Shown here one piece after another: positions 5,368 to 55,524 of a stretch of DNA of 64,000 bases (the first letter of the stretch is position 1; each line of letters begins with the position of its first letter). The stretch is from positions 1,898 through 65,897 of the forward strand of contig DDSC01000004.1 of NCBI GenBank assembly GCA_002343265.1. The letters run 5' to 3'. The notes beneath the pieces were generated by a model. The model searched no databases. It was not told where the DNA came from and saw only the letters and a program-made list of their open reading frames with translations. The DNA is from Micavibrio sp. UBA2400. Lineage in GTDB: Bacteria; Pseudomonadota; Alphaproteobacteria; UBA2400. The position numbers and the translations under genes were made by a program.

Positions 5368-5637
5368 CTAACGGGAGTAGACTTCTCGGCGATGACCAAC
5401 CTTGAGTAACTTTATTGACTTATCCCGATAGTCAATCTTGGCAATTATCCGATAATCCCCAACTCTAAAGCGATGCAATCCTGACAAACTATGCGTAAGA
5501 GACTCAGCCTTCTGTTCAGGATGTGGTGAGGGTAATATATCTTGCTCAAACTTCTTAAAGATGCGCGATTGTATCGATGAGCTAAGCTCGCCGAGTTCTT
5601 TTAGAGCCTTTGGCTCGATGTGAAGTTTCCAAACCAA
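5368..5637 (-). CDS. Type II toxin, RelE/ParE family
   Basis: ...ALKELGEL..IQSRIFKKFE...GDYRIIAKIDYRDKSIKLLKVGHRREVY is the RelE/ParE fold signature. The only possible start is TTG at 5637. Lies in a low-GC region. Confidence 0.75.
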   Translation of the reverse strand: MVWKLHIEPKALKELGELSSSIQSRIFKKFEQDILPSPHPEQKAESLTHSLSGLHRFRVGDYRIIAKIDYRDKSIKLLKVGHRREVYSR

Positions 5638-5833
5638 GTTGAGCCTTTGCGTCTTCGAGACTTACCCATTTTGTCGCCTTTGCCAACCGCTGCTCAGCAA
5701 CAAAAATATCTTCCATATCTTCAAGATGCCGCAATATCGCCTCGCGCGCATAGAATGACTTAGTCCGACCCGTTAACTTAGCTAAGCCGTCTAAGCGGCG
5801 ATCAATGTCTGGTGGCAATCTCAGGGCGAGCAT
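5582..5833 (-). CDS. Ribbon-helix-helix (CopG/ParD-like) antitoxin
   Basis: LRLPPDIDRRLDGLAKLTGRTKSFYAREAILRHLEDMED is an RHH motif. Upstream of, and overlapping, the toxin ORF by 56 nt. Confidence 0.75.
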   Translation of the reverse strand: MLALRLPPDIDRRLDGLAKLTGRTKSFYAREAILRHLEDMEDIFVAEQRLAKATKWVSLEDAKAQLGLETSHRAKGSKRTRRA

Positions 5834-9872: not shown

Positions 9873-10400
9873 TTACGGCAGCAGAGCGATGGTCGCGCGA
9901 TCGCGACTATCCTGCGCCCAGTCGCGCGCGGTGCGGCCGGAATAGTCAGACAGCTCCGCTTTCGCTCCGGCGGAGAGCAGATGCGCGACTACCTCACGCT
10001 GCCCCTTGCGGGCACCTATCATAAGGGCGGTCAGGCCCTGCTTGTTGGGTGCGTTAACATCGGCCCCAGCCGCAATCAGCGCGTCGAGCACCTCAACATG
10101 CCCGGCCTCTGCTGCCACCATCAGCGCGGTCATACCCAGACGGTCAGCCCGGTTTACATCGGCCTTGTGGCGCACCAACAGCTCGACCATCGCCAGCTGC
10201 CCCTTCTCGGCCGCCAACTGCAATAGCGGCGTGCCATTGCTGGTCATGTTGGCTTTGGGCTCGGCCAGCAGGGCGGCTTTGGCACTGTCGAGATCGCCCG
10301 CACGCACGGCTTTGACCAGCGGCGCATCCGAGAACAGGCGGGTTTCAGCGGCAGCGGGGAGGGCAAGCACAAGAAGACACAGAACGACGAGTTTTTTCAT
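9873..10400 (-). CDS. Secreted ankyrin-repeat protein
   Basis: Signal peptide MKKLVVLCLLVLALPAAA, followed by ~4 ankyrin repeats (G.TPL..AA..G....V..LL..GADVN). Confidence 0.8.
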   Translation of the reverse strand: MKKLVVLCLLVLALPAAAETRLFSDAPLVKAVRAGDLDSAKAALLAEPKANMTSNGTPLLQLAAEKGQLAMVELLVRHKADVNRADRLGMTALMVAAEAGHVEVLDALIAAGADVNAPNKQGLTALMIGARKGQREVVAHLLSAGAKAELSDYSGRTARDWAQDSRDRATIALLP

Positions 10401-43566: not shown

Positions 43567-44436
43567 TCAGCGAACGGCGGTCGCGGCTGGCGTTACGCCC
43601 GGCACAGCCGCCGACGTGCTGGCCGCACTGCCATGGACATAGAGTCCGCGCTGGCCATCCATCGGTTTGAAGGCTTGCGTTACGCCCAGCACCGTTTCGG
43701 CCCCGCCCAGATAGAGGATGCCGTCGGGCGGCATCTGGCGGCCAATGCCTTCGAGCACCTTGGCTTTGGTCGCGGGATCGAAATAGATCAGCACATTGCG
43801 GCAAAACACAATATCGAACTGGCCGAGCGCCGTCATCGGCTCCAGCAGATTGAACTGCTGGAACTTGATCTTGCCCTGCATCTGCTTGCTGATCTGCCAC
43901 TTGTCGCCGATCTGGGTGAAGTGCTTGACCAGCATGGTAATGGGCAGACCACGCTGCACCTCGAACTGGGTATAAAGCCCCTGCTTGGCTTTTTCGAGCA
44001 CTTCACGGCACAAATCAGTTGCCACGATCTCGATAGTCCAACCCGGCATCTTGCTGGCTTCTTCATCAAGAATCATTGCCAGCGAATATGGCTCCTGCCC
44101 GTTGGAACAGGCTGCCGACCAGATGCGCAGGCGGCGCGTGGCGGCCCGCGCCTGCAAGAAGCGCGGCAGCACCACCTGACGAAACTGGTCGAAGGGCTTT
44201 TGGTCACGAAAGAAGGATGACTCATTCGTCGTCATCGCATCGGTAATATCAGCCAGCAGAGCCTCATCAGACTTGCTGCGCAGGGCATTGGCCAGTTCGC
44301 CCAGATCCTTGAAGTTCCAGCGGCGGGCCACCGGCATCAGGCGGCTGTCCAGCAGATAGGCCTTTTCCTTGGTCAGTACGAGACCGGAGCGCTGATAGAC
44401 GAATTTGGCAAACAGATCAAAATCTTCAACTCTCAT
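43567..44436 (-). CDS. cheR: Chemotaxis protein methyltransferase CheR
   Basis: CheR N-terminal helical domain plus SAM-MTase domain (...TNESSFFRD..., IWSAACSNGQEPYSLAM). Start MRVEDF overlaps the cheB stop (ATGA). Confidence 0.9.
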   Translation of the reverse strand: MRVEDFDLFAKFVYQRSGLVLTKEKAYLLDSRLMPVARRWNFKDLGELANALRSKSDEALLADITDAMTTNESSFFRDQKPFDQFRQVVLPRFLQARAATRRLRIWSAACSNGQEPYSLAMILDEEASKMPGWTIEIVATDLCREVLEKAKQGLYTQFEVQRGLPITMLVKHFTQIGDKWQISKQMQGKIKFQQFNLLEPMTALGQFDIVFCRNVLIYFDPATKAKVLEGIGRQMPPDGILYLGGAETVLGVTQAFKPMDGQRGLYVHGSAASTSAAVPGVTPAATAVR

Positions 44437-45593
44437 GCCGCCCCCGCTTTCTTGCGCAGGTAAGGCCCAATCTCGGGCAGTGGTAACACGGCAGCACACA
44501 CACCCGCCGTGGCGACTGCCCCCGGCATTCCCCACACCACCGAGGTGGGCTGGTCCTGAGCGACGATCATGCCCCCGCCATTCACGACGATTTCGCTGCC
44601 CTTCAGGCCATCGGCCCCCATCCCGGTCAGGATAGCCACCAGCATACGGTTGGCACCATACATCTCAATCAGGCTGCGCAGCATCGGGTCTACTGCCGGG
44701 CGACAGAAATTCTCCTGCGGCCCGGAGTCAAGCCGCGCCACCACCCCACTGGCTGTCCGGGTAAAGAGCAGATGGAAATCGCCCGGCGCCAGCAGCGCCT
44801 TGCCGGGGGTCAGGACACTGCCGTCCTTGGCCTCTTCACACGGAACCCCGGTCTGACGCGTGATGTGGTCAGCCAGAATGGTGGTAAAAGTCTTGGGCAT
44901 ATGCTGGGTGATGACAATCGGCTGCTTGAGGTTTTTAAGGTGCGGTAGCACGGCGAACAAGGCCTGCGGCCCGCCGGTAGAGGAGCCGATGGCGATCACA
45001 TCCGGTACCAGCGCGGGTGCCGGACGCAAGGTAATCTTGCCCCCTTCATACAGGCGCGATTTGGTAACGATGGGCGGCGCGCTACTTGGCGCACCCGGAC
45101 TGACTGTACGAGCCACAACGCCCGCGGGCAGTGGGCCGACTTTGCCAAGGCGCTGACGCTCGCGCCAGGCACCGTTGCCCAGCTCCCGCACTTTCTCCAG
45201 CAGGTCGCGTTTCCAGTCCGCCGTAGCATCGACCTCACGGGTGGAGGTCGGCTTGCTGACATAATCGGCCGCCCCCAGCGCCATGGCGCGCAGGCTGATC
45301 TCGGCCCCCTGCAAGGTGAGGGTGGACGACATGATAATGCGGGCCCAGGGCTGCGCTTTCATCAGCAGGGGAATGGCGGTCAGGCCATCCATCACCGGCA
45401 TTTCGATATCAAGGATGATGACATCCGCCAGTTCGCGTTGGGCAAAGCTCACGCCGGCCTGCCCGTCCGCCATGGAGCCGACGATGAGGGCCTCGGGAAT
45501 ATCGGTCAGGGCGCGGGTGACAAAGCCGCGGATGACCGCAGAGTCGTCGACAATAAGCACCCGGATCGGGTCGGCAACAGTGGGTTCAGGCAT
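44433..45593 (-). CDS. cheB: Chemotaxis response regulator protein-glutamate methylesterase CheB
   Basis: REC domain (VLIVDDS...D) plus methylesterase domain with the GSSTGGP catalytic Ser and a His/Asp triad. Confidence 0.9.
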   Translation of the reverse strand: MPEPTVADPIRVLIVDDSAVIRGFVTRALTDIPEALIVGSMADGQAGVSFAQRELADVIILDIEMPVMDGLTAIPLLMKAQPWARIIMSSTLTLQGAEISLRAMALGAADYVSKPTSTREVDATADWKRDLLEKVRELGNGAWRERQRLGKVGPLPAGVVARTVSPGAPSSAPPIVTKSRLYEGGKITLRPAPALVPDVIAIGSSTGGPQALFAVLPHLKNLKQPIVITQHMPKTFTTILADHITRQTGVPCEEAKDGSVLTPGKALLAPGDFHLLFTRTASGVVARLDSGPQENFCRPAVDPMLRSLIEMYGANRMLVAILTGMGADGLKGSEIVVNGGGMIVAQDQPTSVVWGMPGAVATAGVCAAVLPLPEIGPYLRKKAGAA

Positions 45594-45602
45594 AGTCCTT
45601 GG

Positions 45603-45971
45603 TTATCCAATCAGGCCGACTTGTGAAAACTTGGTCTGGATGATGTCGCTGTCAAACGGCTTCATGATGTACTCATTGGCCCCAGCCGACAGCGCTTCCT
45701 TGATGTGATTGAGGTCCGCCTCGGTGGTGCAGAACAGAACTTTGGGCTTGTCGCCACCGGGCATCTTGCGCAGCTCGCGCAGAAACTCAATCCCGTTCAT
45801 CACCGGCATGTTCCAGTCGAGGAGAACGGCGTCCGGCATGGCCTTGCTGCAGGCTTCCTGTGCTTTCTTGCCGTCTTCGGCTTCCGTACAGGTGAATTTG
45901 AGATCTTCCAGAATCTTCCGGGCGATCTGCCGCACGACACGGCTGTCATCAACAATCAGACAGGTTGCCAT
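45603..45971 (-). CDS. cheY: Chemotaxis response regulator CheY
   Basis: Single-domain REC (LIVDDS, LLDWNMP phospho-Asp, conserved T and K) within the che operon. Confidence 0.9.
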   Translation of the reverse strand: MATCLIVDDSRVVRQIARKILEDLKFTCTEAEDGKKAQEACSKAMPDAVLLDWNMPVMNGIEFLRELRKMPGGDKPKVLFCTTEADLNHIKEALSAGANEYIMKPFDSDIIQTKFSQVGLIG

Positions 45972-46006
45972 TCTCGTTCCCCTTACCCCATCACGATCAT
46001 CTGCGC

Positions 46007-46492
46007 TCAGGCGGCGGACGCCGCGGAGAGATTCAACAGAGCCGCAATATCAATCACGACCATCAACTGACCTTGTAACCGGTATATCCCACGCGAGACA
46101 TCCCGCCAACGGGGATCCAGTGTCGGTGGATTGGCTTCAAAATCAGCCGCATCCAGCGACATGACTTCGCCCACCTGGTCGATCAGCAGGCTGTACTGCT
46201 CGCCATTAAGATCAACCACGACGCTCATGCCCTTCATCTCAGCCGGGCGCGGCGGCAGACCCAGCCGGGTACGGACATCGATCGCCGTTACGATGCGCCC
46301 ACGCAAATTGAGCGAGCCCGCGACCTCGACCGGGGCCAGCGGAATACGGGTGAGCCGCTGCGGCCCGAGCACATCGCGAACCTGCAGCACCGGAATGCCA
46401 AACAACTGTCCGGCAATCGTCATCGTCACATACCCATTGGCCACCGACGGCTCGGCCGCACTGGCGGCGTGAAGAGGGGTAACATTACTCAT
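46007..46492 (-). CDS. cheW: Chemotaxis coupling protein CheW
   Basis: Single CheW-like domain (...FGIPV..V.......P.....G..NLRG..V..ID...). Confidence 0.9.
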   Translation of the reverse strand: MSNVTPLHAASAAEPSVANGYVTMTIAGQLFGIPVLQVRDVLGPQRLTRIPLAPVEVAGSLNLRGRIVTAIDVRTRLGLPPRPAEMKGMSVVVDLNGEQYSLLIDQVGEVMSLDAADFEANPPTLDPRWRDVSRGIYRLQGQLMVVIDIAALLNLSAASAA

Positions 46493-49200
46493 GCGGCACC
46501 TCGCTGGGCTTGCAGGGTTTGGGACAGGGTCGAGAGCAGCGCCTCACGATCGAACTTGGCGACGTGATTGGCAAAACCGGCACGGCGACCGCGATCCTGA
46601 TCGATATTGGTCGCGTGGCTCGACAAAGCAATCACCGGTACGGCCTGCCAGCGGGCATCCTTCTTGAGCGCCTCCACAAACTCGAACCCGCTCATCCCCG
46701 GCATTTCGATATCGCTGACGATGATGTCAAACTCCACGTCACCCTGACAGAGCTGGAGCGCATCAATCGCGCTTTCTACCGTGGTGACCTGATAGCCCGA
46801 GACGTTCAGCAGCGGGGTCAGCATATTACGGAAGAAGGAGCTGTCATCAACCAGCAGGATGCGCTGGGCCCGGCCTTCCTCTTTGCCCTGAAACGCAGTC
46901 GTCGCGCCGAAGAAGTCCTTGAAGGTACGGGTCAGATAGAACCCGGCATCAATGACTTCGGTGCTGCGTCCGGCGATAATGGCTGAGCCCATCAGACCTT
47001 GCGAGTCACTGCCAAGCTGCACGTTGAGGTGTTCTTCAACGATATCGACAATCTCGTCGACCACCAGACCTACCGAGCGCTCGCGATCCGCAAAGACCAG
47101 CACCGGCTGATTGCCCTCGCTGCGCAGCTTGACGCGCTCGTTGAGCGGGATCAGCGGCATCAGGCTGCCGCGGTACTGCACCACCGCCTGACCACCGGAC
47201 TGCTCGATGGTGGCGACGTCGATATCCTCGAGGCGGGCAACCAGCGACAGCGGCACCGCCTTGGGTGCCGTATCACCCGCACGGAACAGGAGCATGGCCA
47301 GTTTGTCGCCACGCTGGGTCGCAGGATTACGCGCTTCCTCAGTGGTCTTCTGCTCGTCCTCACCTGCCGCCTTACCGGTGGCGGCGGCGATGCCGTTGGG
47401 ATCGAGAATCATGATGACGCTGCCGTCGCCCAAAATGGTATTCCCCGAGAACATGTCGATATGGCGCAGGATTGGCGCGACCGGCTTGACCACGATTTCC
47501 TCGGTGTCAAAGACGCGATCCACAATGATGCCGAACGTCTGGCTACCGACTTGTGAGACAACGATGGTCGCCTCGGCAGTCGGCGCGGCCACAGAGGGCA
47601 GCTTGAGCAACGCTGAGAGCGTGACCAGCGGCAGCAGGCGATTGCGCAGACGCAGAACCGGCGCGTTATTGATATGCTCAATCGAATTGTCGCTGTTCTT
47701 GCCACCAGCACGCACCAATTCAAGCACACTGATCTGGGGGATAGCAAACCGCTCGCCCGCGCTTTCCACGATCAGGGCCGACACAATAGCCAGTGTCAGC
47801 GGGATCTTGATGGTAAAGGTACTGCCCTTGCCTTCCACCGACTTCATGTCGATGGTGCCGCCGATCTTTTCGATATTGGTGCGCACGACATCCATGCCCA
47901 CTCCGCGGCCGGATACGGCGGTCACCTGTGCTGCGGTAGAGAACCCCGCCTTGAAGATGTACATATGCACCTGGGCATCGGACATGACCTTGACTTCAGC
48001 TTCGGTCGCCATGCCGTTCTTGATGATCTTTTCGCGGATTTTCTGGGTCGGGAGACCACGGCCATCGTCGGAAATCTGGATGATGATATGCCCGCCCTCG
48101 TGGAAAGCGTTCAGAGTGACACGGCCGGTTTCCTTCTTACCCGCCTTGATGCGGTCGGCTGGGGTCTCAAGACCATGGTCGGCTGAGTTGCGCACCATAT
48201 GGGTGAGCGGGTCCTTGATCATCTCCAGGACCTGACGGTCGAGTTCCGTTTCGGCGCCGAGCATCTGCAGATCAATTTTCTTGCCCAGTTCGCTCGACAG
48301 ATCGCGAATGATGCGCGGCAGCTTGCTCCAGGCATTGCCAATCGGCTGCATGCGCGTCTTCATGACCTGCTCCTGCAGGTCGCTGGTCACATGATTAAGC
48401 CGCTGCAGCGGCGCGGCAAACTCGGTGTCTTTTTGCGTGCGCAGGATCTGCAGCATCTGATTGCGGATCAGCACCAGTTCGCTGACCATGGTCATCAGAC
48501 CTTCCAGCACATCAACATTGACACGCAAGGACTGGTTGGCCAGCGCGGACTCTGCCGCTGGCGCGCTTTCCTTGACGGGCGCGGTTGAGGCGGCAGTCGG
48601 CGCACTGGCGGGGGGTGGCGTCAGCTCAGCCGTCTTATGGGCGGGCACAGGGACAAACCCATGCTCATCGGGAGCCGGGCTGGTAACGGCCGCGGCCACA
48701 TCGGCGGTCTTGTGGGCGGGCACCGGCACAAAGCCATGCTCGTCCGGCACCGGTTCGCTGCTGACCGGAGCCGAAGCTGCGGCCAACGGGGGCGCAGCAG
48801 CAGCAGGGACGCCGCCGCCATCCTTGCCATCGGCATGATCGTTGAGCTGGGCAATCAGCTCGGTATCGGCCCCTTCCGGTTCGGTCCCGGCTTCTTCCAG
48901 CGCGGCCAACAGGGTTTTGATCCGGTCAAGCGCAGCCAGAATGAGGGTGACGGAATAGGGCGTAACCGGCAGTTTGCCATCACGGAATTTGCCAAGAATG
49001 TTTTCGCCAGCATGAGCGACCTGCTCCAGACGGGGCAAGCCAAGAAAGCCGCAGGTGCCCTTGATGGTATGCACCGTCCGGAAAATTGTGTTGAGCAGCG
49101 CCGGGTCGTTGGGGTTCTGCTCGAGCTTGATGAGCTCGTTATCGAGCACCGCGAGATTCTCGTTCGTCTCGGTCAAAAATTCGCGCAGCAGATCATCCAT
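46489..49200 (-). CDS. cheA: Chemotaxis histidine kinase CheA. Hybrid: Hpt, dimerisation domain, HATPase, two CheW-like domains, C-terminal receiver.
   Basis: Hpt with H in TVHTIKG. CheA dimerisation/HATPase blocks (DHGLE, ISDDGRGL, GRGVGMDVV, GKGSTF). Two CheW-like domains. C-terminal REC (ILLVDDS...D in SDIEMPGMSG...K). Confidence 0.9.
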   Translation of the reverse strand: MDDLLREFLTETNENLAVLDNELIKLEQNPNDPALLNTIFRTVHTIKGTCGFLGLPRLEQVAHAGENILGKFRDGKLPVTPYSVTLILAALDRIKTLLAALEEAGTEPEGADTELIAQLNDHADGKDGGGVPAAAAPPLAAASAPVSSEPVPDEHGFVPVPAHKTADVAAAVTSPAPDEHGFVPVPAHKTAELTPPPASAPTAASTAPVKESAPAAESALANQSLRVNVDVLEGLMTMVSELVLIRNQMLQILRTQKDTEFAAPLQRLNHVTSDLQEQVMKTRMQPIGNAWSKLPRIIRDLSSELGKKIDLQMLGAETELDRQVLEMIKDPLTHMVRNSADHGLETPADRIKAGKKETGRVTLNAFHEGGHIIIQISDDGRGLPTQKIREKIIKNGMATEAEVKVMSDAQVHMYIFKAGFSTAAQVTAVSGRGVGMDVVRTNIEKIGGTIDMKSVEGKGSTFTIKIPLTLAIVSALIVESAGERFAIPQISVLELVRAGGKNSDNSIEHINNAPVLRLRNRLLPLVTLSALLKLPSVAAPTAEATIVVSQVGSQTFGIIVDRVFDTEEIVVKPVAPILRHIDMFSGNTILGDGSVIMILDPNGIAAATGKAAGEDEQKTTEEARNPATQRGDKLAMLLFRAGDTAPKAVPLSLVARLEDIDVATIEQSGGQAVVQYRGSLMPLIPLNERVKLRSEGNQPVLVFADRERSVGLVVDEIVDIVEEHLNVQLGSDSQGLMGSAIIAGRSTEVIDAGFYLTRTFKDFFGATTAFQGKEEGRAQRILLVDDSSFFRNMLTPLLNVSGYQVTTVESAIDALQLCQGDVEFDIIVSDIEMPGMSGFEFVEALKKDARWQAVPVIALSSHATNIDQDRGRRAGFANHVAKFDREALLSTLSQTLQAQRGAA
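48632..48781. repeat. Imperfect 75-bp tandem duplication inside the cheA Hpt–kinase linker
   Basis: Units start at 48632 and 48707 (gtctt(a/g)tgggcgggcac...). Encodes the duplicated peptide PDEHGFVPVPAHKTA. Confidence 0.6.
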
Positions 49201-49332
49201 GAACGTTCCCCCTACATGCCCATTCGGGTCAGGTTATCGCTCTATTTCGCGCAGAAAGACCTTAACAAGCCGTTACCCGAACAGCTGATCGTTAAAATTA
49301 CAACTTATTGATAGGTCTTGACCTTTTGCTGA

Positions 49333-49989
49333 TCAGGCAGCGACCGGGACAGGCGTATAAACAAGGCTCATGTCCAAACGATCCTCGCCGCTCTGGCTCC
49401 ACCCCAGCTTGACCCCATAATGCTCGGCAAACCGGGCTGTGATATAGGGGTGAATGCTACGTGCCGTAAGGTCATCTATCGCTACGTCACCCTTAAGTGC
49501 GGGCCAGGCTTCCTCCCGGGTTCCTGCGCCACGACCTTGGGCGAGGATGGTAAGGCGGCCCGGTTCAGGCCGCGCCACCTCAATCGTGCCGCCGTGGACC
49601 AGATTTTCTACAGCCACGATCAACAGGTTAAGCAATACCTTGGGCACTCCGCGCGGCTGCCCGGTGATATCTTTCATAACCGCCGCATCCCAGCTGATGG
49701 CGGCCCGACTGCCGGCCAGATAATCGCGCAGAGTTGTCAAAATATCATCGCAGGACAGATTGGCATCGGCCCCGGCTGCCCCATAGCCCACGCGAAACAA
49801 CCGCAGACGCCGCGCGGCCTGCTCGGAAGAATGGCCGATCAGCTTGGCGGCCTCTTCCCCCACCTGTGCGCCCATTTCTTCAAGTAATTCAACACCGTTA
49901 CTGATGGCCCCCACCGGACTGATGAGGTCGTGGCAGATGCGCGAGGCCAGTAATTCCATCACGCGCAGATTTTCCAGCACCGGCGGCAT
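49333..49989 (-). CDS. ChpT-family histidine phosphotransferase-like protein (DUF2328-type)
   Basis: ELLASRICHDLISPVGAISNGVELLEE is the ChpT-type HisKA-like helix with conserved His. Followed by a degenerate ATPase-like domain. SD aaggag is best placed for ATG 49989. Confidence 0.6.
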   Translation of the reverse strand: MPPVLENLRVMELLASRICHDLISPVGAISNGVELLEEMGAQVGEEAAKLIGHSSEQAARRLRLFRVGYGAAGADANLSCDDILTTLRDYLAGSRAAISWDAAVMKDITGQPRGVPKVLLNLLIVAVENLVHGGTIEVARPEPGRLTILAQGRGAGTREEAWPALKGDVAIDDLTARSIHPYITARFAEHYGVKLGWSQSGEDRLDMSLVYTPVPVAA

Positions 49990-50112
49990 GGTCATCTCCT
50001 TAAATTCTGTCGCGGGCGCACCTGTGTGGCCCGAAGACACCATCGCTGGTTTACCTTATTTTGGCAACATCCTCACTAGGGATTGTTTACTTTTCACCCG
50101 GCACACTCGGGC

Positions 50113-52095
50113 ATGGCCTCGCGCTCCCTTTTTCAGTCCGACACCGCCGCCCACGACCTCGGGCTCTCCCTGCTTGGGCAGCTCGGGACGGGCGATGGCC
50201 TGCTGAGCAGTGTTGTCCCTCTGCGCGCCGTATTGATGCAGATGCTCACGCTCTACAGCTCGGCGGTGCTGGTGATCGCCGGGTTCATCGTGTTGTATTA
50301 TTTTACGCTGGTCATTGTCGATGCCGCCAAAACCGGTCAGGCCTTCCGGCGGATCGACCCGGTATGGGGGCCGCTGCGGCTAGTGATCGCCATTGGCATT
50401 CTGGTGCCTCTGGGCGGCGGCCTGAACAGCGGCCAGCTGATGGTGCTACAGCTCTCGCAGTGGGGTTCCGGTCTGGCGTCCCAGCTCTGGCAGCAGGTGG
50501 GCGAAGATAGCCAGTTGGTACAGCCCATGATCGCGCGGCCTGGCCCGGTACCGGCGCTAGCGCTAGTGCGCGCACTGGTGCTGCGCGATGCCTGCGTGGC
50601 CTACACTACTCGCTTGGCCTATGAGCAGCAGACCGCCTATCGCCGCGCTCGCGAAGCAATCAAATCCGACAAACCCGCCAATGATGCCCCGGTTCTAACG
50701 CCACCAACGCTCTATCCGGTTCTCGCCCAGCCGGTCGCTACCAACGCCGATGGCTCGCAGACGACACCCTATGGCTGGACCGAGCGGCCTTATTTTTGCG
50801 GCTCCACCACTATTTTTCCGCCCACTCCGCGCACCGAAGAAACCCTGTTCAACCTGCTCAAGCAGGCCCATGTTGATGGCCTGCGCCGACTAGAAGGACG
50901 TACACAGGAATACGCGCAGGACTATCTGCAGCTGGCCATGGGGCAGCGATTGCTTAACAACCGCTCGCCTCTGACACTGGCCGAAATCTATGAGACGGAG
51001 TTGCGCTTTGCCAATTCACCCGGCTTCAACAGTGCGCTGGGCCAGCACCTGTCGATCCTGCACAACCAGCTCCGACCGCTCGGCTGGGTGGGGGCGCCCG
51101 CTTATCTGGATTCGATTCTACGCTTGAATCTGCGTTTGATCAGCTTGAACGCCTCCCTGCCCCAGATTGACCCACCTGAGGTTCTGATTGCGCCGCCGCC
51201 ACTGGCGACTGCGACGGCTGCGGAAACCAAAATCTACGAACTGTTACACCGCATTGACCGCTCATGGGGCGATGTAGCGCGCGTCCCCCCGCTCAGTGCG
51301 GCGGGATTGGGTGGCTTATCTACCTTGCTCAGCCATGCGGTCGCGCTGTCGCGCGAAGTGCCCGGTACAGGCGCGGCCGGTCACCAGTTGCGGGTGGCAC
51401 GCGATCTGATGCAAACCAGCGATTATGACTGGGCGACCTTTGCCCGACAAAATCCACTGGTGGGTCTGGCTGAACTTGGCACCTATCTGACCGGCAAAGC
51501 CGCCGGACTGCTGGCCGGAGCGGGGGTGCTGGATAGCGTGGGTCCGGTCACCGGGCCAATGGTGGTGATGATTACCGCTTTGGGTCTGATGGCATTCGTT
51601 GTCAGCATTGCCCTGCTGCTGGTCCTGCCGCTGATCCCCTTGGTCCGGTTTTTTCTCGGCGTCGCGGTCTGGCTGGTGGAAGTGTTTGAAGCGCTCATCG
51701 CTATTCCGCTGGTCGCGCTGGCCCATCTGCGCGCCGACGAGCATGGGCTGGCCGGACAAAGTGCCATTTTGTGCTATCTGATGATCCTCAAGATCATGCT
51801 GCGTCCGGCCCTGATGGTTCTGGGTCTGCTTGGCGGCTTCATCCTGTTCCTGATCCTGCTCGGGGCGCTAAACAGCCTGTTGGCCGGCAGTATGCCCGGC
51901 GTTATTAACAGTGGCCAGATCTCCAGCCTGTGGTTTGTGCTGGTGAGCGGGGTTTATGCCCTGCTGCTGCTGGGAATTGCCAATGCCTGCTTCAAGCTGA
52001 TCGACTGGCTGCCCCAGCGCACTTTAACCTGGCTGCAAGGCCTGCTGCAGCCGGGGCGCAACCACGGCCAAACAGCCCCGGAACCGACCGCTTGA
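50113..52095 (+). CDS. Large polytopic membrane protein (about 660 aa), unassigned. Topology vaguely TrbL/VirB6- or DotA/TraY-like.
   Basis: N-terminal pair of TM helices, an approx. 330-aa non-hydrophobic central domain, and a C-terminal cluster of 5-6 TM helices. The ORF opens at TTG 50083; first ATG at 50113. Confidence 0.5.
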   Translation: MASRSLFQSDTAAHDLGLSLLGQLGTGDGLLSSVVPLRAVLMQMLTLYSSAVLVIAGFIVLYYFTLVIVDAAKTGQAFRRIDPVWGPLRLVIAIGILVPLGGGLNSGQLMVLQLSQWGSGLASQLWQQVGEDSQLVQPMIARPGPVPALALVRALVLRDACVAYTTRLAYEQQTAYRRAREAIKSDKPANDAPVLTPPTLYPVLAQPVATNADGSQTTPYGWTERPYFCGSTTIFPPTPRTEETLFNLLKQAHVDGLRRLEGRTQEYAQDYLQLAMGQRLLNNRSPLTLAEIYETELRFANSPGFNSALGQHLSILHNQLRPLGWVGAPAYLDSILRLNLRLISLNASLPQIDPPEVLIAPPPLATATAAETKIYELLHRIDRSWGDVARVPPLSAAGLGGLSTLLSHAVALSREVPGTGAAGHQLRVARDLMQTSDYDWATFARQNPLVGLAELGTYLTGKAAGLLAGAGVLDSVGPVTGPMVVMITALGLMAFVVSIALLLVLPLIPLVRFFLGVAVWLVEVFEALIAIPLVALAHLRADEHGLAGQSAILCYLMILKIMLRPALMVLGLLGGFILFLILLGALNSLLAGSMPGVINSGQISSLWFVLVSGVYALLLLGIANACFKLIDWLPQRTLTWLQGLLQPGRNHGQTAPEPTA

Positions 52096-52160: not shown

Positions 52161-52802
52161 ATGAGCACCGACATTTTCAGCGAAATCGACGAAGACCTGC
52201 GCCGCCAGAAGCTGGAGCGCATCTGGAAAACCCATGGCCGTACCATTCTGGTCGTGGGCGCCCTGCTGCTGCTGGCCAGCGGCGCCTATGCCTACTGGCA
52301 GGGGCGGCAGATGACCAGACTGGAGGCAGCGACCGCTACTCTGACCACCAGCTTGCAAAAGCTGAAAGACGACAACCGCGAAGCGATTCTGGGCGAGCTG
52401 TCAGCCTTTGCGCCCACCGCACCGGAAGGGCAGGCCCGACTGGCCAAGCTGTACGCCAGTACACTGGCCGACAAACTGGACAAAGACGAGCAGGCCAAAA
52501 CCGAGCTGACCACCCTTGCCGAGGACAGCCGCCAACCGGCGCTGTATCGCGACTTTGCCCGTCTGCTGCTGGTCTATCGCGAGCTGGATACAGGCGATCC
52601 GATTGCCCTACAGAACAGACTGTCTCCCCTCAAAGGTAAAGACAAGCCTTGGCGCTTTGCTGCCGAGGAGCTGTCGGCGCTGCTCAGCCTGAAACAGGGG
52701 GACAGCGCCAGTGCCAAAGCCGCGCTGGAACGCCTGCAAGCCGACAAGGATGCTCCGCAAGGTGTGCGGGAACGCGCCACCCGCATTCTCTCGACCCTCT
52801 AA
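52161..52802 (+). CDS. Membrane-anchored TPR-like protein, YfgM family
   Basis: Acidic N-terminus, single TM (ILVVGALLLLASGAYAYW), helical TPR-like periplasmic domain. Conserved position upstream of bamB–der. Confidence 0.65.
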   Translation: MSTDIFSEIDEDLRRQKLERIWKTHGRTILVVGALLLLASGAYAYWQGRQMTRLEAATATLTTSLQKLKDDNREAILGELSAFAPTAPEGQARLAKLYASTLADKLDKDEQAKTELTTLAEDSRQPALYRDFARLLLVYRELDTGDPIALQNRLSPLKGKDKPWRFAAEELSALLSLKQGDSASAKAALERLQADKDAPQGVRERATRILSTL

Positions 52803-52826
52803 GCCTGTTCTGACCGGGAGGTTGCC

Positions 52827-54164
52827 ATGATCCGAAATCTGAGTGGCCACGGCTCCGGCCTGATGCTTATCCTGCTGCTGGCGGGCTGCACCGACAGCTG
52901 GCTGGGTGAGGCCGAGCCGCCCCCCTTGCCGGGTGAACGTATTCCGGTGCTGGCGTTTGACCAAAAACTGCAGGCCGACGCATCCCTTGTCGGCCAACCC
53001 ATGCAACTACCTGCGGCGGTGACCAACACCAGCTGGTTGAGCGCAGGCGGCAATCCCACCCATGGCGGTGGGGCCTTCGAACTGGCCGGACAGCCACGCG
53101 ATGTCTGGCAAACCGATATCGGTGAAGGCGTCGATGATGCACGCCCGCTTCTCTCGGTGCCAGTAGTACAAGGCGATCAGGTATTTGCGCTGGATACGGA
53201 GGGGCTGCTCTCGGCCGTCAACCTGACCAGCGGCAAAGCTATGTGGCAACGCCATGCCGCTCCGCGCGAACTGCGACACAAAGCCGATGGCGGTGGACTG
53301 GCCCTGAGTGGAGATGGCCTGGTGATCGCCAGCCTTGGGTATGGCGAGATGGTTGCCTTTGCCGTGACCGATGGCAAGGAGCTCTGGCGCACCCCCACCC
53401 GTAGCCCGCTGCGCAGCGCTCCAACGGTGGCCAATGGCCAAGCCTACGTGGTGACGATTGATAATCAGCTGCTCGCCTTTGATGCCCGTACCGGCCGCCT
53501 CTTGTGGAGCCATGCCGGACTGATGGAAGCCGCCGGACTGCTTGGTGCTCCCAGCCCGGCCGTCTCGGGTGATGTGGTCCTAGTGGCCTACTCCTCGGGC
53601 GAACTTTATGCACTGCGAACCCTCAATGGCGGTGAACTGTGGAGTGACAACCTTACCGCCACCCGCCGCGAGGGTGGGGTCCTGACACTGGCGGCTATCC
53701 GCGGTCTGCCGGTACTGGCCGCGGGCGGGGCAGCGGCTATTGCTGTCAGCAACTCCGGACGACTGGTCGCAATTGACAACCGTAGCGGCCAGCGGGTGTG
53801 GGAACAGCGCCTGTCGAGCCAGCAGACACCTTGGGTAGCGGGCGACAGCCTGTTTGTTGTCACCACGGATGCCGAGCTGGTGGCCCTGACCTTGCGCGAA
53901 GGCAAACCGCGCTGGGTGCAGCAGCTGGCGCAGTGGGAGAATGCGAAGGATAAACGCGGCGTTATCAGCTGGTATGGGCCGGTGCTGGCGGGCGATCGCC
54001 TGTGGCTGACCAACAGCGAGGGCGAAATGCTCAGCTTTGATCCCCATAGCGGTCAGGCACTGGAGCGGCAGGATCTGGGCACACCGATCAAGCGCCCGCC
54101 GATTGTTGCCAACAACACGTTGCTGGTCCTGAACGACAACGGCCGTCTGCTGGCGTGGCGCTGA
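52827..54164 (+). CDS. bamB: Outer-membrane protein assembly factor BamB (PQQ-repeat beta-propeller lipoprotein)
   Basis: Lipobox LLAGC, and repeated PQQ-type W-motifs (..LWR.., ..LWS.., ..VWEQ.., ..RLWL..). Confidence 0.8.
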   Translation: MIRNLSGHGSGLMLILLLAGCTDSWLGEAEPPPLPGERIPVLAFDQKLQADASLVGQPMQLPAAVTNTSWLSAGGNPTHGGGAFELAGQPRDVWQTDIGEGVDDARPLLSVPVVQGDQVFALDTEGLLSAVNLTSGKAMWQRHAAPRELRHKADGGGLALSGDGLVIASLGYGEMVAFAVTDGKELWRTPTRSPLRSAPTVANGQAYVVTIDNQLLAFDARTGRLLWSHAGLMEAAGLLGAPSPAVSGDVVLVAYSSGELYALRTLNGGELWSDNLTATRREGGVLTLAAIRGLPVLAAGGAAAIAVSNSGRLVAIDNRSGQRVWEQRLSSQQTPWVAGDSLFVVTTDAELVALTLREGKPRWVQQLAQWENAKDKRGVISWYGPVLAGDRLWLTNSEGEMLSFDPHSGQALERQDLGTPIKRPPIVANNTLLVLNDNGRLLAWR

Positions 54165-54165
54165 G

Positions 54166-55524
54166 ATGGCCCTGCGTGTTGCTCTGGTCGGCCGCCCCAA
54201 CGTTGGCAAGTCCACCCTGTTCAATCGGCTGTGTGGCAAGCCGCTGGCGATTGTGCATGACGAGCCGGGGGTTACCCGCGACTGGAAGGAAGCGCCGGCG
54301 CGCCTGTCCGATCTGAACTTCATTGCGATTGATACAGCGGGTCTGGAAGATGTCGCTGGCCGCCCGAGCAGCGATCCGATTGCCGCCGGTATGCGCGCGC
54401 AAACCGAGGCGGCACTGGCGCGGGCCGATCTTATCCTGTTCGTGATCGACGGTAAGGAAGGGGTTACCGCCACCGACCGCACGCTGGCCAAATGGCTGCG
54501 CAAGCAGGGTCGCCCGCTGATTCTGGCCGCCAATAAATGCGAGAGCCGCACCGATTTAAGCGACGCCTATGCGCTGGGTCTCGGCACTCCGCTGCCCATC
54601 TCGGCAGCGCATGGAGACGGACTGGCTGATCTCTACCAGCAGCTGCGCCCACATGTAGACGCACATGCGGAAGATGGCGAAGATCCGGAAGCGGGCGACA
54701 AACCGATCCGCCTTGCTCTGGTTGGCCGCCCCAATGCTGGCAAGTCCACCCTGTTCAACGCCCTGATTGGCGAGGATCGCGCCATGGTCAGCCCGATTGC
54801 GGGCACCACACGTGATACCGTAAGCGAAGACTGGACGCATGAGGGCCAGGCCTTCCGCTTGGTCGATACCGCCGGGCTGCGCAAAAAGTCCAAGGTCGAC
54901 AAGGGCGTCGAAAAACTGGCGGTGGATGAATCGCTGCGCATCATCCGCCTCGCGGAGATTGTCATTCTGGTGTGCGATGCCACCATGGCGCTGGAACAGC
55001 AGGACCTGACCATTGCCGATCTGGTGCTGCGCGAAGGCCGGGCCCTGATTATTGCTCTCAACAAGTGGGATCTGGTCAAATCGCCGGCCGCCGTACTCAA
55101 AGAGCTGAATGCCCAGTTGGAAGAGACCCTCAGTCAGGCCGCCGGGATCACCGTCATTCCCATCAGCGCGCTCAAGGGCCGCAAGCTTGATAGTCTGATG
55201 CAGGGCGTGCGCGATGTCTATCGCCGCTGGGATACGCGCGTGACCACCGGCCAGCTTAACCGCTGGCTGGAAGCGATGCTGGAGGCGCACACGCCACCAC
55301 TGGTGAAGGGGCGGCGCGTGAAAATCCGCTACATGACTCAGCGCAAGGGCCGCCCGCCAACCTTTGTGCTGTTCTGCGGCACCCATGCCGAGCCACCAGA
55401 CAGCTATATCCGCTATCTGCAAAACGGTCTGCGCGAACGCTTTGATCTGCCCGGAGTGCCGATCCGCATTGAAATCAAAAAGGGTCGCAATCCCTACGCC
55501 GAGGGCGACGGCAAGAAAGAATAA
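54166..55524 (+). CDS. der: Ribosome-associated GTPase Der (EngA)
   Basis: Two tandem GTPase domains (GRPNVGKST.. and GRPNAGKST..) plus a KH-like C-domain. Confidence 0.95.
   Translation: MALRVALVGRPNVGKSTLFNRLCGKPLAIVHDEPGVTRDWKEAPARLSDLNFIAIDTAGLEDVAGRPSSDPIAAGMRAQTEAALARADLILFVIDGKEGVTATDRTLAKWLRKQGRPLILAANKCESRTDLSDAYALGLGTPLPISAAHGDGLADLYQQLRPHVDAHAEDGEDPEAGDKPIRLALVGRPNAGKSTLFNALIGEDRAMVSPIAGTTRDTVSEDWTHEGQAFRLVDTAGLRKKSKVDKGVEKLAVDESLRIIRLAEIVILVCDATMALEQQDLTIADLVLREGRALIIALNKWDLVKSPAAVLKELNAQLEETLSQAAGITVIPISALKGRKLDSLMQGVRDVYRRWDTRVTTGQLNRWLEAMLEAHTPPLVKGRRVKIRYMTQRKGRPPTFVLFCGTHAEPPDSYIRYLQNGLRERFDLPGVPIRIEIKKGRNPYAEGDGKKE

Follow-up and report, generated by a model that had tools for sequence, protein, structure and literature searches.

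The Dot/Icm type IVB secretion system (T4BSS) is a machine of about 27 proteins, and only in 2025 were DotA and IcmX shown to be its central gate. To date both are understood only as components of this machine. DotA/TraY proteins are the VirB6-class central channel subunits of type IVB secretion and of I-type (IncI) conjugation machines. To our knowledge, all characterised DotA/TraY genes lie among other dot/icm or tra genes. DotA is regarded as the VirB6 counterpart of type IVB systems (PMC12857230; PMC12595440). It is built of two transmembrane helices (TM1 and TM2), an extended domain of 530 amino acids (aa) and the hydrophobic helices HH1 to HH5. In the DotA pentamer only TM1 and TM2 cross the inner membrane, and HH1 to HH5 build a hollow chamber (PMC12501162). 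Here, we describe a gene for a 660-aa DotA-like protein in a stretch of 64,000 nucleotides from Micavibrio sp. UBA2400 (GenBank assembly GCA_002343265.1, contig DDSC01000004.1, positions 1,898 to 65,897 of the forward strand). This whole stretch is called the window, and positions are those of the window unless a locus is named. An earlier note on this DNA had proposed that the protein recalls TrbL/VirB6 or DotA/TraY-type secretion-channel proteins, and its author distrusted the resemblance. Sequence profiles and the predicted fold now identify the protein as a member of the DotA/TraY family and of the VirB6 class. Orthologous loci indicate that the gene is a conserved syntenic gene of a small Micavibrio-related alphaproteobacterial clade and is not unique to one genome. 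It is found without other type IV secretion system (T4SS) genes around it.

A short member of the DotA/TraY family

The open reading frame (ORF) that holds the gene runs from 50083 to 52095 on the forward strand, and its first start codon, a TTG at 50083, would give a protein of 670 aa. The biological start is almost certainly the ATG at 50113, because M1 and an N-terminus of the form MSSxSLF are kept across 16 homologues. The coding sequence and its regions are listed below with the evidence for each.

50113..52095, forward strand: coding sequence of the 660-aa DotA/TraY-family protein (ATG start; profile, homologue, PDB-sequence and fold evidence)
50242..50424, forward strand: N-terminal transmembrane hairpin, residues ~44-104, equivalent of DotA TM1/TM2 and presumed inner-membrane anchor (hydropathy; aligned to DotA 29-145)
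50515..51447, forward strand: extended domain, presumably periplasmic, residues ~135-445 (secondary structure from AlphaFold2, AF2; DotA limits from PMC12501162)
50743..50802, forward strand: best-conserved stretch of the extended domain, NADGSxTTPYGWxERPYFCG, residues 211-230 (invariant columns)
51454..52047, forward strand: C-terminal long hydrophobic helices, residues ~448-645, equivalent of DotA HH1-HH5, which build the pentameric chamber in Legionella (PMC12501162) (alignment to DotA 683-947, hydropathy, AF2)

A Kyte-Doolittle scan finds hydrophobic segments at residues ~44-70 and 86-104 near the N-terminus and at 475-540, 550-598 and 601-634 near the C-terminus, with ~310-340 hydrophilic residues separating the two groups. 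This agrees with the architecture of two N-terminal transmembrane helices, a soluble domain and a C-terminal hydrophobic bundle that had been described in the earlier note. The protein had also been called polytopic. Its hydrophobic helices are real, but the term may overstate the topology because homology with DotA predicts that the inner membrane is crossed by the N-terminal pair of helices alone and that the C-terminal bundle would form a hydrophobic chamber in the periplasm.

The resemblance that had been distrusted is borne out by profile and structure databases. The NCBIfam profile TIGR04346 (DotA_TraY) matches with 191.4 bits against a cut-off of 100, and the match joins residues 37-641 of the protein to positions 24-655 of the 656 of the profile. 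In a sequence search of the PDB, Legionella DotA (9ngy/9nh0) is the sole match at E <= 0.001, with an E value of 1.4e-13 for the single sequence and 5.7e-20 for the profile of the clade. This match covers the N-terminal hairpin (residues 12-128 with DotA 29-145) and the C-terminal helices (446-644 with DotA 683-947), and a weak additional match in the middle domain falls on a GWxxAxxY motif. The cut-off of NF033886, the equivalog profile of Legionella/Coxiella DotA, was missed (120.1 vs 500 bits), and that match is confined to C-terminal residues 436-642. Pfam gave no family at E <= 1 for the 660-aa protein, the TrbL/VirB6 family PF04610 included, and hence the family call rests on NCBIfam, the PDB sequence search and the fold. 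Of the two profiles whose comparison the earlier note had advised, the DotA/TraY one thus matches over the full length and PF04610 does not match. Because DotA is now regarded as the VirB6 counterpart, the two candidates in that note belong to one structural class.

Structure prediction, which had been advised for the central domain, gave a confident AF2 model of the whole protein when an alignment of 87 family members was used (pLDDT, the predicted local distance difference test, 92.5; pTM, the predicted template modelling score, 0.88). Its helices are at residues 32-74, 85-97, 448-474, 478-537, 549-598, 601-627 and 629-645, and the middle domain of ~310 aa (vs ~530 aa in Legionella DotA) is formed by crossing long helices and a small beta-hairpin. 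Foldseek with this model places the solved DotA structure at an E value of 3.7e-10 and gives a weak match to the VirB6/TrwI stalk subunit (7o3v; E 0.36). With only 16 close homologues in the alignment the model was poor (pLDDT 60.7), and Foldseek with that model gave no meaningful match. Seventeen residues are invariant across the 87 family members. They include A72, G75, P87, R89 and P99 in the N-terminal hairpin and C161, C229, G230, G324 and P350 in the extended domain. The region of residues 211-230 models as the beta-hairpin, with strands at 216-222 and 231-234, and C161 and C229 probably form a disulfide that flanks this stretch.

The likeness to Legionella DotA extends to the order of the elements (a TM1-TM2 hairpin, an extended domain and five long hydrophobic helices), to sequence homology in both hydrophobic regions and to the GWxxAxxY motif of the middle domain. 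DotA is longer, with 1048 aa against 660 aa here and ~530 aa against ~310 aa in the middle domain. Five disulfides have been reported for DotA, whereas the window protein has one family-invariant Cys pair. In a manual mapping of the PDB alignment, the DotA neck residues L719, I722, F725 and M729 correspond to V479, P482, a gap and M486. Unlike the DotA gene of Legionella, the window gene does not lie beside icmV/W/X or dotB/C/D. TraY of incompatibility group I (IncI) plasmids of the mating-pair formation type MPF_I (R64-type; pND6-2 WP_009685665.1, 754 aa) has TIGR04346 in common with the window protein, and its N-terminal hairpin region is detectable by tblastn (32-35% identity, residues 40-143). 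However, the pND6-2 protein is distant in the tree, has a signal-peptide-like N-terminus and is encoded on a plasmid typed MPF_I, alongside the type IV pilus gene pilM. When 72,556 plasmids were searched with tblastn, 26 gave any match to the window protein, each over at most 16% of the query. VirB6/TrbL/TrwI differs in that PF04610 does not match here and in that VirB6 is without a large middle domain. The extended VirB6 paralogues of the rvh system of Rickettsiales belong to the VirB6 class as well: their genes are on the chromosome, descend vertically, have been enlarged by hydrophilic domains and in some cases form tandem duplicates. They are scattered and of type IVA, and a full T4SS set coexists with them.

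A constrained gene of a small clade

A search of 5.8 billion proteins found 17 close homologues with 50-64% identity and full coverage, and the ORF is intact in all 17. The alignment of 16 homologues has a mean column identity of 68% and ~130 invariant positions. The ratio of nonsynonymous to synonymous substitution rates (dN/dS) is 0.005 at a dS of 0.13 between two of the orthologous loci (L007 and L020), the only pair that is unsaturated at synonymous sites. Other pairs give dN/dS values of 0.2-0.36 at dS 1.2-3.2, which is at or near saturation. The GC content of the gene resembles that of the surrounding DNA. The gene is functional, under purifying selection and vertically inherited. The earlier note had argued from length and helix number that this is not a spurious high-GC ORF, and the homologues, the invariant positions and the low dN/dS uphold that argument.

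The gene string cheR-cheB-cheY-cheW-cheA-chpT, the divergent DotA-like gene and yfgM-bamB-der is found in the window and in loci L003, L007/L008/L020, L011 and L022/L023. The syntenic orthologues are 58% (L003), 59% (L007/L008/L020), 54% (L011) and 50% (L022/L023, on a 1.44-Mb contig) identical to the window protein. In L011 a Band_7 gene is inserted between chpT and the DotA-like gene, and in L007 another gene is inserted beside chpT. L014, at 40% identity, keeps the che-chpT side and has rodA, an AmiC-like amidase and a BON-domain gene downstream instead. The identities of the DotA-like protein (59, 58, 54 and 50%) run parallel to those of Der (77, 73, 65 and 66%), and BamB and CheA track them as well. 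This parallel course across lineages fits vertical descent of the gene.

In a neighbour-joining tree, the proteins of 655-681 aa are monophyletic and nested among proteins of 800-1000 aa, and the TraY of the MPF_I plasmid is far away. A profile search of 1.84 billion representatives gave 4,795 family members, only three of them above 650 bits. After the 655-681-aa clade the score drops from 658 to 283 bits, and the protein with 283 bits has 889 aa. A scan of genome contigs found five loci with alignment-based patterns and none with single-protein patterns, and a metagenome scan found three. The genome records of the relatives are titled 'Micavibrio sp.' (58% identity), 'uncultured Pseudobdellovibrionaceae' (53%), 'Bdellovibrionales bacterium' (40% and 25%) and 'Alphaproteobacteria bacterium' (34%). 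Micavibrio is placed under Pseudobdellovibrionaceae in the NCBI taxonomy. Within the window, ChpT and DUF4167 indicate an alphaproteobacterium.

The corresponding region of Micavibrio aeruginosavorus ARL-13 (GMV_341-351; PMC3189940, supplementary file 4) keeps radA-cvpA and, further on, der-bamB-yfgM, with a 420-nt ORF and icd in place of the DotA-like gene and che-chpT. The RNA-seq table of ARL-13 is uninformative for the DotA-like gene because the orthologue seems to be absent from this strain.

Isolation from type IV secretion genes

Among the called genes of the window (1-64000) there is no T4SS family, and Pfam annotation reports housekeeping, motility and signalling genes only. The statement in the earlier note that the window holds no other type IV secretion genes is therefore correct. 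No T4SS family was found in the 17-22 kb around each of five orthologous loci (L003, L007, L011, L014 and L022). Genes of a T4BSS/MPF_I cluster (DotB/TraJ, DotO/TraU, IcmX/TraW, DotG/TraO and others) are missing from the window and the orthologous loci, and no IcmX-like or DotG-like gene lies near the DotA-like gene at the loci examined. Together, these loci place the DotA-like gene at least 10-50 kb from any T4SS gene. It had been asked whether orthologues sit in conjugation or T4SS clusters or always stand alone next to che genes, and in the sequence inspected the latter holds for all syntenic orthologues. No integrase, relaxase or tRNA-flank signatures surround the gene in the window. An all-against-all BLASTP comparison of the ORFs of 13 loci found no partner gene common to the neighbourhoods. 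Only dut recurs, in L015 and L016, and it is a housekeeping gene.

The DotA/TraY proteins of 800-1000 aa from uncultured Alphaproteobacteria are 24-31% identical to the window protein over their full length, have the 17 invariant residues in common with it and are also encoded outside T4SS clusters, beside housekeeping genes. They differ by an N-terminal extension of ~130-170 aa and a longer middle domain. Some are tandem paralogues or lie on mobilisable elements, and none is linked to che/chpT or yfgM-bamB-der. No T4BSS core genes were found in seven loci of longer relatives (P0018, P0025, P0026, P0022/P0032, P0036, L015 and L016). P0025 (918 aa, MDX2028703.1) is encoded between ftsH and PPDK/ilvD, and P0018 among flagellar genes, an LPD7 gene and an oligopeptide ABC transporter. 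P0022 and P0032 (L018 1078-7077) are tandem paralogues with a 125-aa fragment between them and adjoin purC. P0026 (L017 110-3706) has a second-copy fragment upstream and rpsD and yhdP downstream. The two paralogue lineages form separate branches in the tree.

Three of the loci carry further genes worth recording. P0036 (933 aa, L024 1-22802) is encoded on an apparent integrative mobilisable element with an integrase, ArdA, a DnaG-type primase, NikA/MobC, a relaxase and DUF736, and no T4SS core genes lie within 10 kb on either side of it (20 kb). L016 (1453-11088) holds a DotA/TraY homologue of 1037 aa that is followed by dut. Upstream of it lie genes for a PilB/GspE-like ATPase and a PilC/GspF-like platform protein, together with three small ORFs that are bitopic or pilin-like. 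This locus may be a chromosomal hybrid of type IV-filament genes with a DotA-like gene. A relative of this homologue in L015 (13-4588) adjoins dut-coaBC. In L003 (12204-16661; also L004, 6270-10676), from the lineage of metagenome-assembled genomes (MAGs) titled 'Micavibrio sp.', the DotA-like gene and yfgM are separated by three inserted genes. These encode a prepilin-type protein of 157 aa, a repeat-rich and Cys-rich protein of 565-617 aa and a protein of 719-735 aa with a prepilin N-terminal methylation motif. We treat these two independent associations with type IV-filament genes (L003/L004 and L016) as leads and not as evidence.

Neighbouring genes and the divergent spacer

The genes and sites that flank the DotA-like gene are as follows.

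49333..49989, reverse strand: ChpT-like histidine phosphotransferase (PF10090), first gene of the divergent chpT-cheA(REC)-cheW-cheY-cheB-cheR string at 43567-49989 (Pfam)
49990..50112, no strand: divergent spacer of 123 nt between the ChpT-like and DotA-like genes (gene calls)
50064..50090, forward strand: motif GCAAC-N16-GTTTAC, candidate promoter or operator, -49 to -23 of the ATG (conservation)
52161..55524, forward strand: yfgM-like gene (TPR_21, 52161-52802), bamB (52827-54164) and der (54166-55524) (gene calls)

This confirms both the position that the earlier note had given, between a chemosensory operon and the yfgM-bamB-der block (Pfam annotation of the neighbours), and its 123-nt spacing, which runs from the chpT edge at 49989 to the ATG at 50113. 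The DotA-like gene may be co-transcribed with yfgM-bamB-der, because they lie on the same strand with a 65-nt gap, in which a consensus scan found no terminator-like site. In the divergent spacer, inspection by eye found no CtrA box (TTAA-N7-TTAA) and no sigma-54 spacing, and a consensus scan found no sigma-70-like site. The GCAAC-N16-GTTTAC motif stands at the same distance in L007/L008/L020 and in L013, which makes three lineages with the window. It has no other copy in the 64-kb window or in 26 loci, and in 10 of 100 shuffled versions of the window it turned up once or more. Its general shape is presumably that of promoters of extracytoplasmic function (ECF) sigma factors.

On the other side of the spacer (46489-49989, reverse strand), CheA carries a C-terminal receiver (REC) domain and the ChpT-like histidine phosphotransferase (HPt) gene is directly upstream. 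The ChpT-like protein scores 125 bits, about half of the ChpT equivalog cut-offs of 225-240. The receiver domain and the low score suggest a phosphorelay from CheA-REC to HPt here, instead of or besides a CckA-ChpT-CtrA role.

Two genes elsewhere in the window were noted in passing. An 83-aa ribbon-helix-helix protein (5582-5833, reverse strand) matches Pfam TraY (PF05509). It was rejected as a relative of IncI TraY/DotA since this family is the DNA-binding ribbon-helix-helix TraY of the F plasmid and the name is a coincidence; the protein is probably an antitoxin or a regulator. Between lysS and motB (9873-10400, reverse strand) lies a gene for an ankyrin-repeat protein of 175 aa. This domain is uncommon among free-living bacteria and may bear on a lifestyle in association with cells.

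Possible roles of the DotA-like protein

Because the gene is fixed between chpT-che and yfgM-bamB-der without other T4SS genes, the protein seems to have been recruited as an envelope channel or platform that stands alone, or to work with unlinked partners. We think it fairly probable that it is a minimal pentameric chamber protein of the DotA/VirB6 class, at the inner membrane and in the periplasm, that is used apart from a canonical T4BSS cluster. By analogy with DotA, the two N-terminal helices would anchor the protein in the inner membrane, and the 310-aa middle domain and the five C-terminal hydrophobic helices would lie on the periplasmic side. Five copies would then form a hollow, hydrophobically lined chamber ('protochannel') able to open into a conduit, and the protein could act as a gated conduit or an assembly platform. 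It is from this analogy that we infer pentamerisation, the topology of the periplasmic chamber and an action as channel or platform. The protein would also have to work independently of any T4BSS encoded at another place in the genome, which is likewise inferred.

Several points weigh against the reading as a chamber protein used on its own. The inspected sequence amounts to 64 kb of the genome and ~20 kb per relative, and a T4BSS could be encoded elsewhere. The DotA-IcmX protochannel of Legionella fails to assemble without DotG or IcmX (PMC12501162), and a lone DotA-like protein is thus without precedent for autonomous assembly. A beta-hairpin of the DotA extended domain plugs into IcmX, and the most conserved part of the middle domain here is also a beta-hairpin, a candidate equivalent of that in DotA, which hints that a partner still exists. 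In M. aeruginosavorus ARL-13, der-bamB-yfgM (GMV_347-349) are followed by the 420-nt ORF and icd and by no 2-kb gene. This strain seems to lack the DotA-like gene at the syntenic site, and the gene is therefore not universal in Micavibrio-like bacteria. The taxonomy of the clade that carries it is drawn from the titles of MAG records.

In the main rival explanation, the protein is the ordinary DotA/TraY of a complete T4BSS or I-type conjugation system, works just as in Legionella or R64, and has its partner genes elsewhere in the genome. Such a split locus would account for the canonical family membership and fold, for the need of DotA for IcmX and DotG (PMC12501162) and for the conserved beta-hairpin, which could be an IcmX-type docking element, and only part of each genome is visible. 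However, known dotA and traY genes lie among dot/icm or tra genes, as on the MPF_I plasmid pND6-2, whereas the 64 kb of the window and every orthologous locus show housekeeping genes only. The proteins of the clade, with 655-681 aa, are also shorter than all others in the family (800-1100 aa), the score gap from 658 to 283 bits sets them apart, and the match of the window protein to the DotA equivalog NF033886 reaches only 120 of 500 bits. No type IV secretion system is reported in the genome paper of ARL-13 (PMC3189940), the one cultured relative with a sequenced genome, although this strain also seems to lack the gene. A split locus is, on balance, rather unlikely. Mobile-element backgrounds of some relatives, namely P0036 with its integrase, ArdA, primase and relaxase and P0018 with its LPD7 gene, would suit a decayed leftover of an integrated IncI-like conjugative element that was kept by chance. 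Against decay stand the ORF intact in 17 of 17 homologues, ~130 invariant residues, a dN/dS of 0.005 and the confident AF2 model; and the lack of integrase, relaxase and tRNA-flank signatures, a GC content like that of the surroundings and the synteny and co-divergence with Der, BamB and CheA make a chance leftover highly improbable. Even less credit is due to an ordinary solute transporter or polytopic membrane protein that is only superficially DotA-like. The seven hydrophobic helices would agree with it, as would the housekeeping envelope genes nearby, but it is contradicted by the TIGR04346 and PDB matches to DotA. No Pfam or NCBIfam transporter family matches, and MATE, SLC and ABC structures appear in Foldseek at E > 0.8 only, against 3.7e-10 for DotA.

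A tie to the divergent ChpT/Che phosphorelay, for example as an envelope output or input device under its control, is compatible with a DotA/VirB6-class chamber used apart from a T4BSS. All orthologous loci keep the DotA-like gene next to chpT-cheA(REC)-cheW-cheY-cheB-cheR, even L014 (40% identity) with its different downstream genes, and the shared spacer holds a conserved motif. On the other hand, this is a small clade, and gene order is in general well kept at such a divergence (Der is 65-77% identical). Genes are inserted between the two in L011 (Band_7) and beside chpT in L007. The spacer has neither a TTAA-N7-TTAA CtrA box (by eye) nor a sigma-70-like site (consensus scan), and longer relatives are without che linkage. 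We regard such a tie as doubtful. A broader proposal can also be made, in which the DotA-like proteins of Alphaproteobacteria make up a large class of envelope channels that do not depend on a T4SS. The version of 660 aa would then be a pentameric conduit, either self-sufficient or working with type IV-filament-like partners, for contact-dependent exchange with other cells (e.g., prey attachment or feeding by epibiotic predators), possibly under ChpT/Che control. We regard this proposal as speculative and on the whole unlikely.

Meaning for the DotA/VirB6 family

The family call is not new, because pipelines already name such proteins DotA/TraY (P0002 and P0016 in IMG; P0025 at NCBI). A literature search found no paper on stand-alone DotA-like genes, or on any DotA-like gene in Micavibrio-like bacteria. 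Both the cleanness of the structural homology and the isolation of the gene in the genome are out of the ordinary. Should these genomes turn out to encode a T4BSS at another site, what remains of the finding is a gene organisation that is split in an unusual way. Two things are added here: a short DotA relative, long maintained as a lone chromosomal gene by relatives of the epibiotic predator Micavibrio, and a broader group of alphaproteobacterial homologues that are likewise encoded away from T4SS clusters. Both together suggest that type IV secretion may not be the only setting in which the DotA/VirB6 module is used. If this is true, the protein would be the smallest natural DotA scaffold for studying how a pentameric chamber assembles and opens, and it could be a sign that predatory or cell-associated alphaproteobacteria have an envelope apparatus that has so far gone unrecognised.

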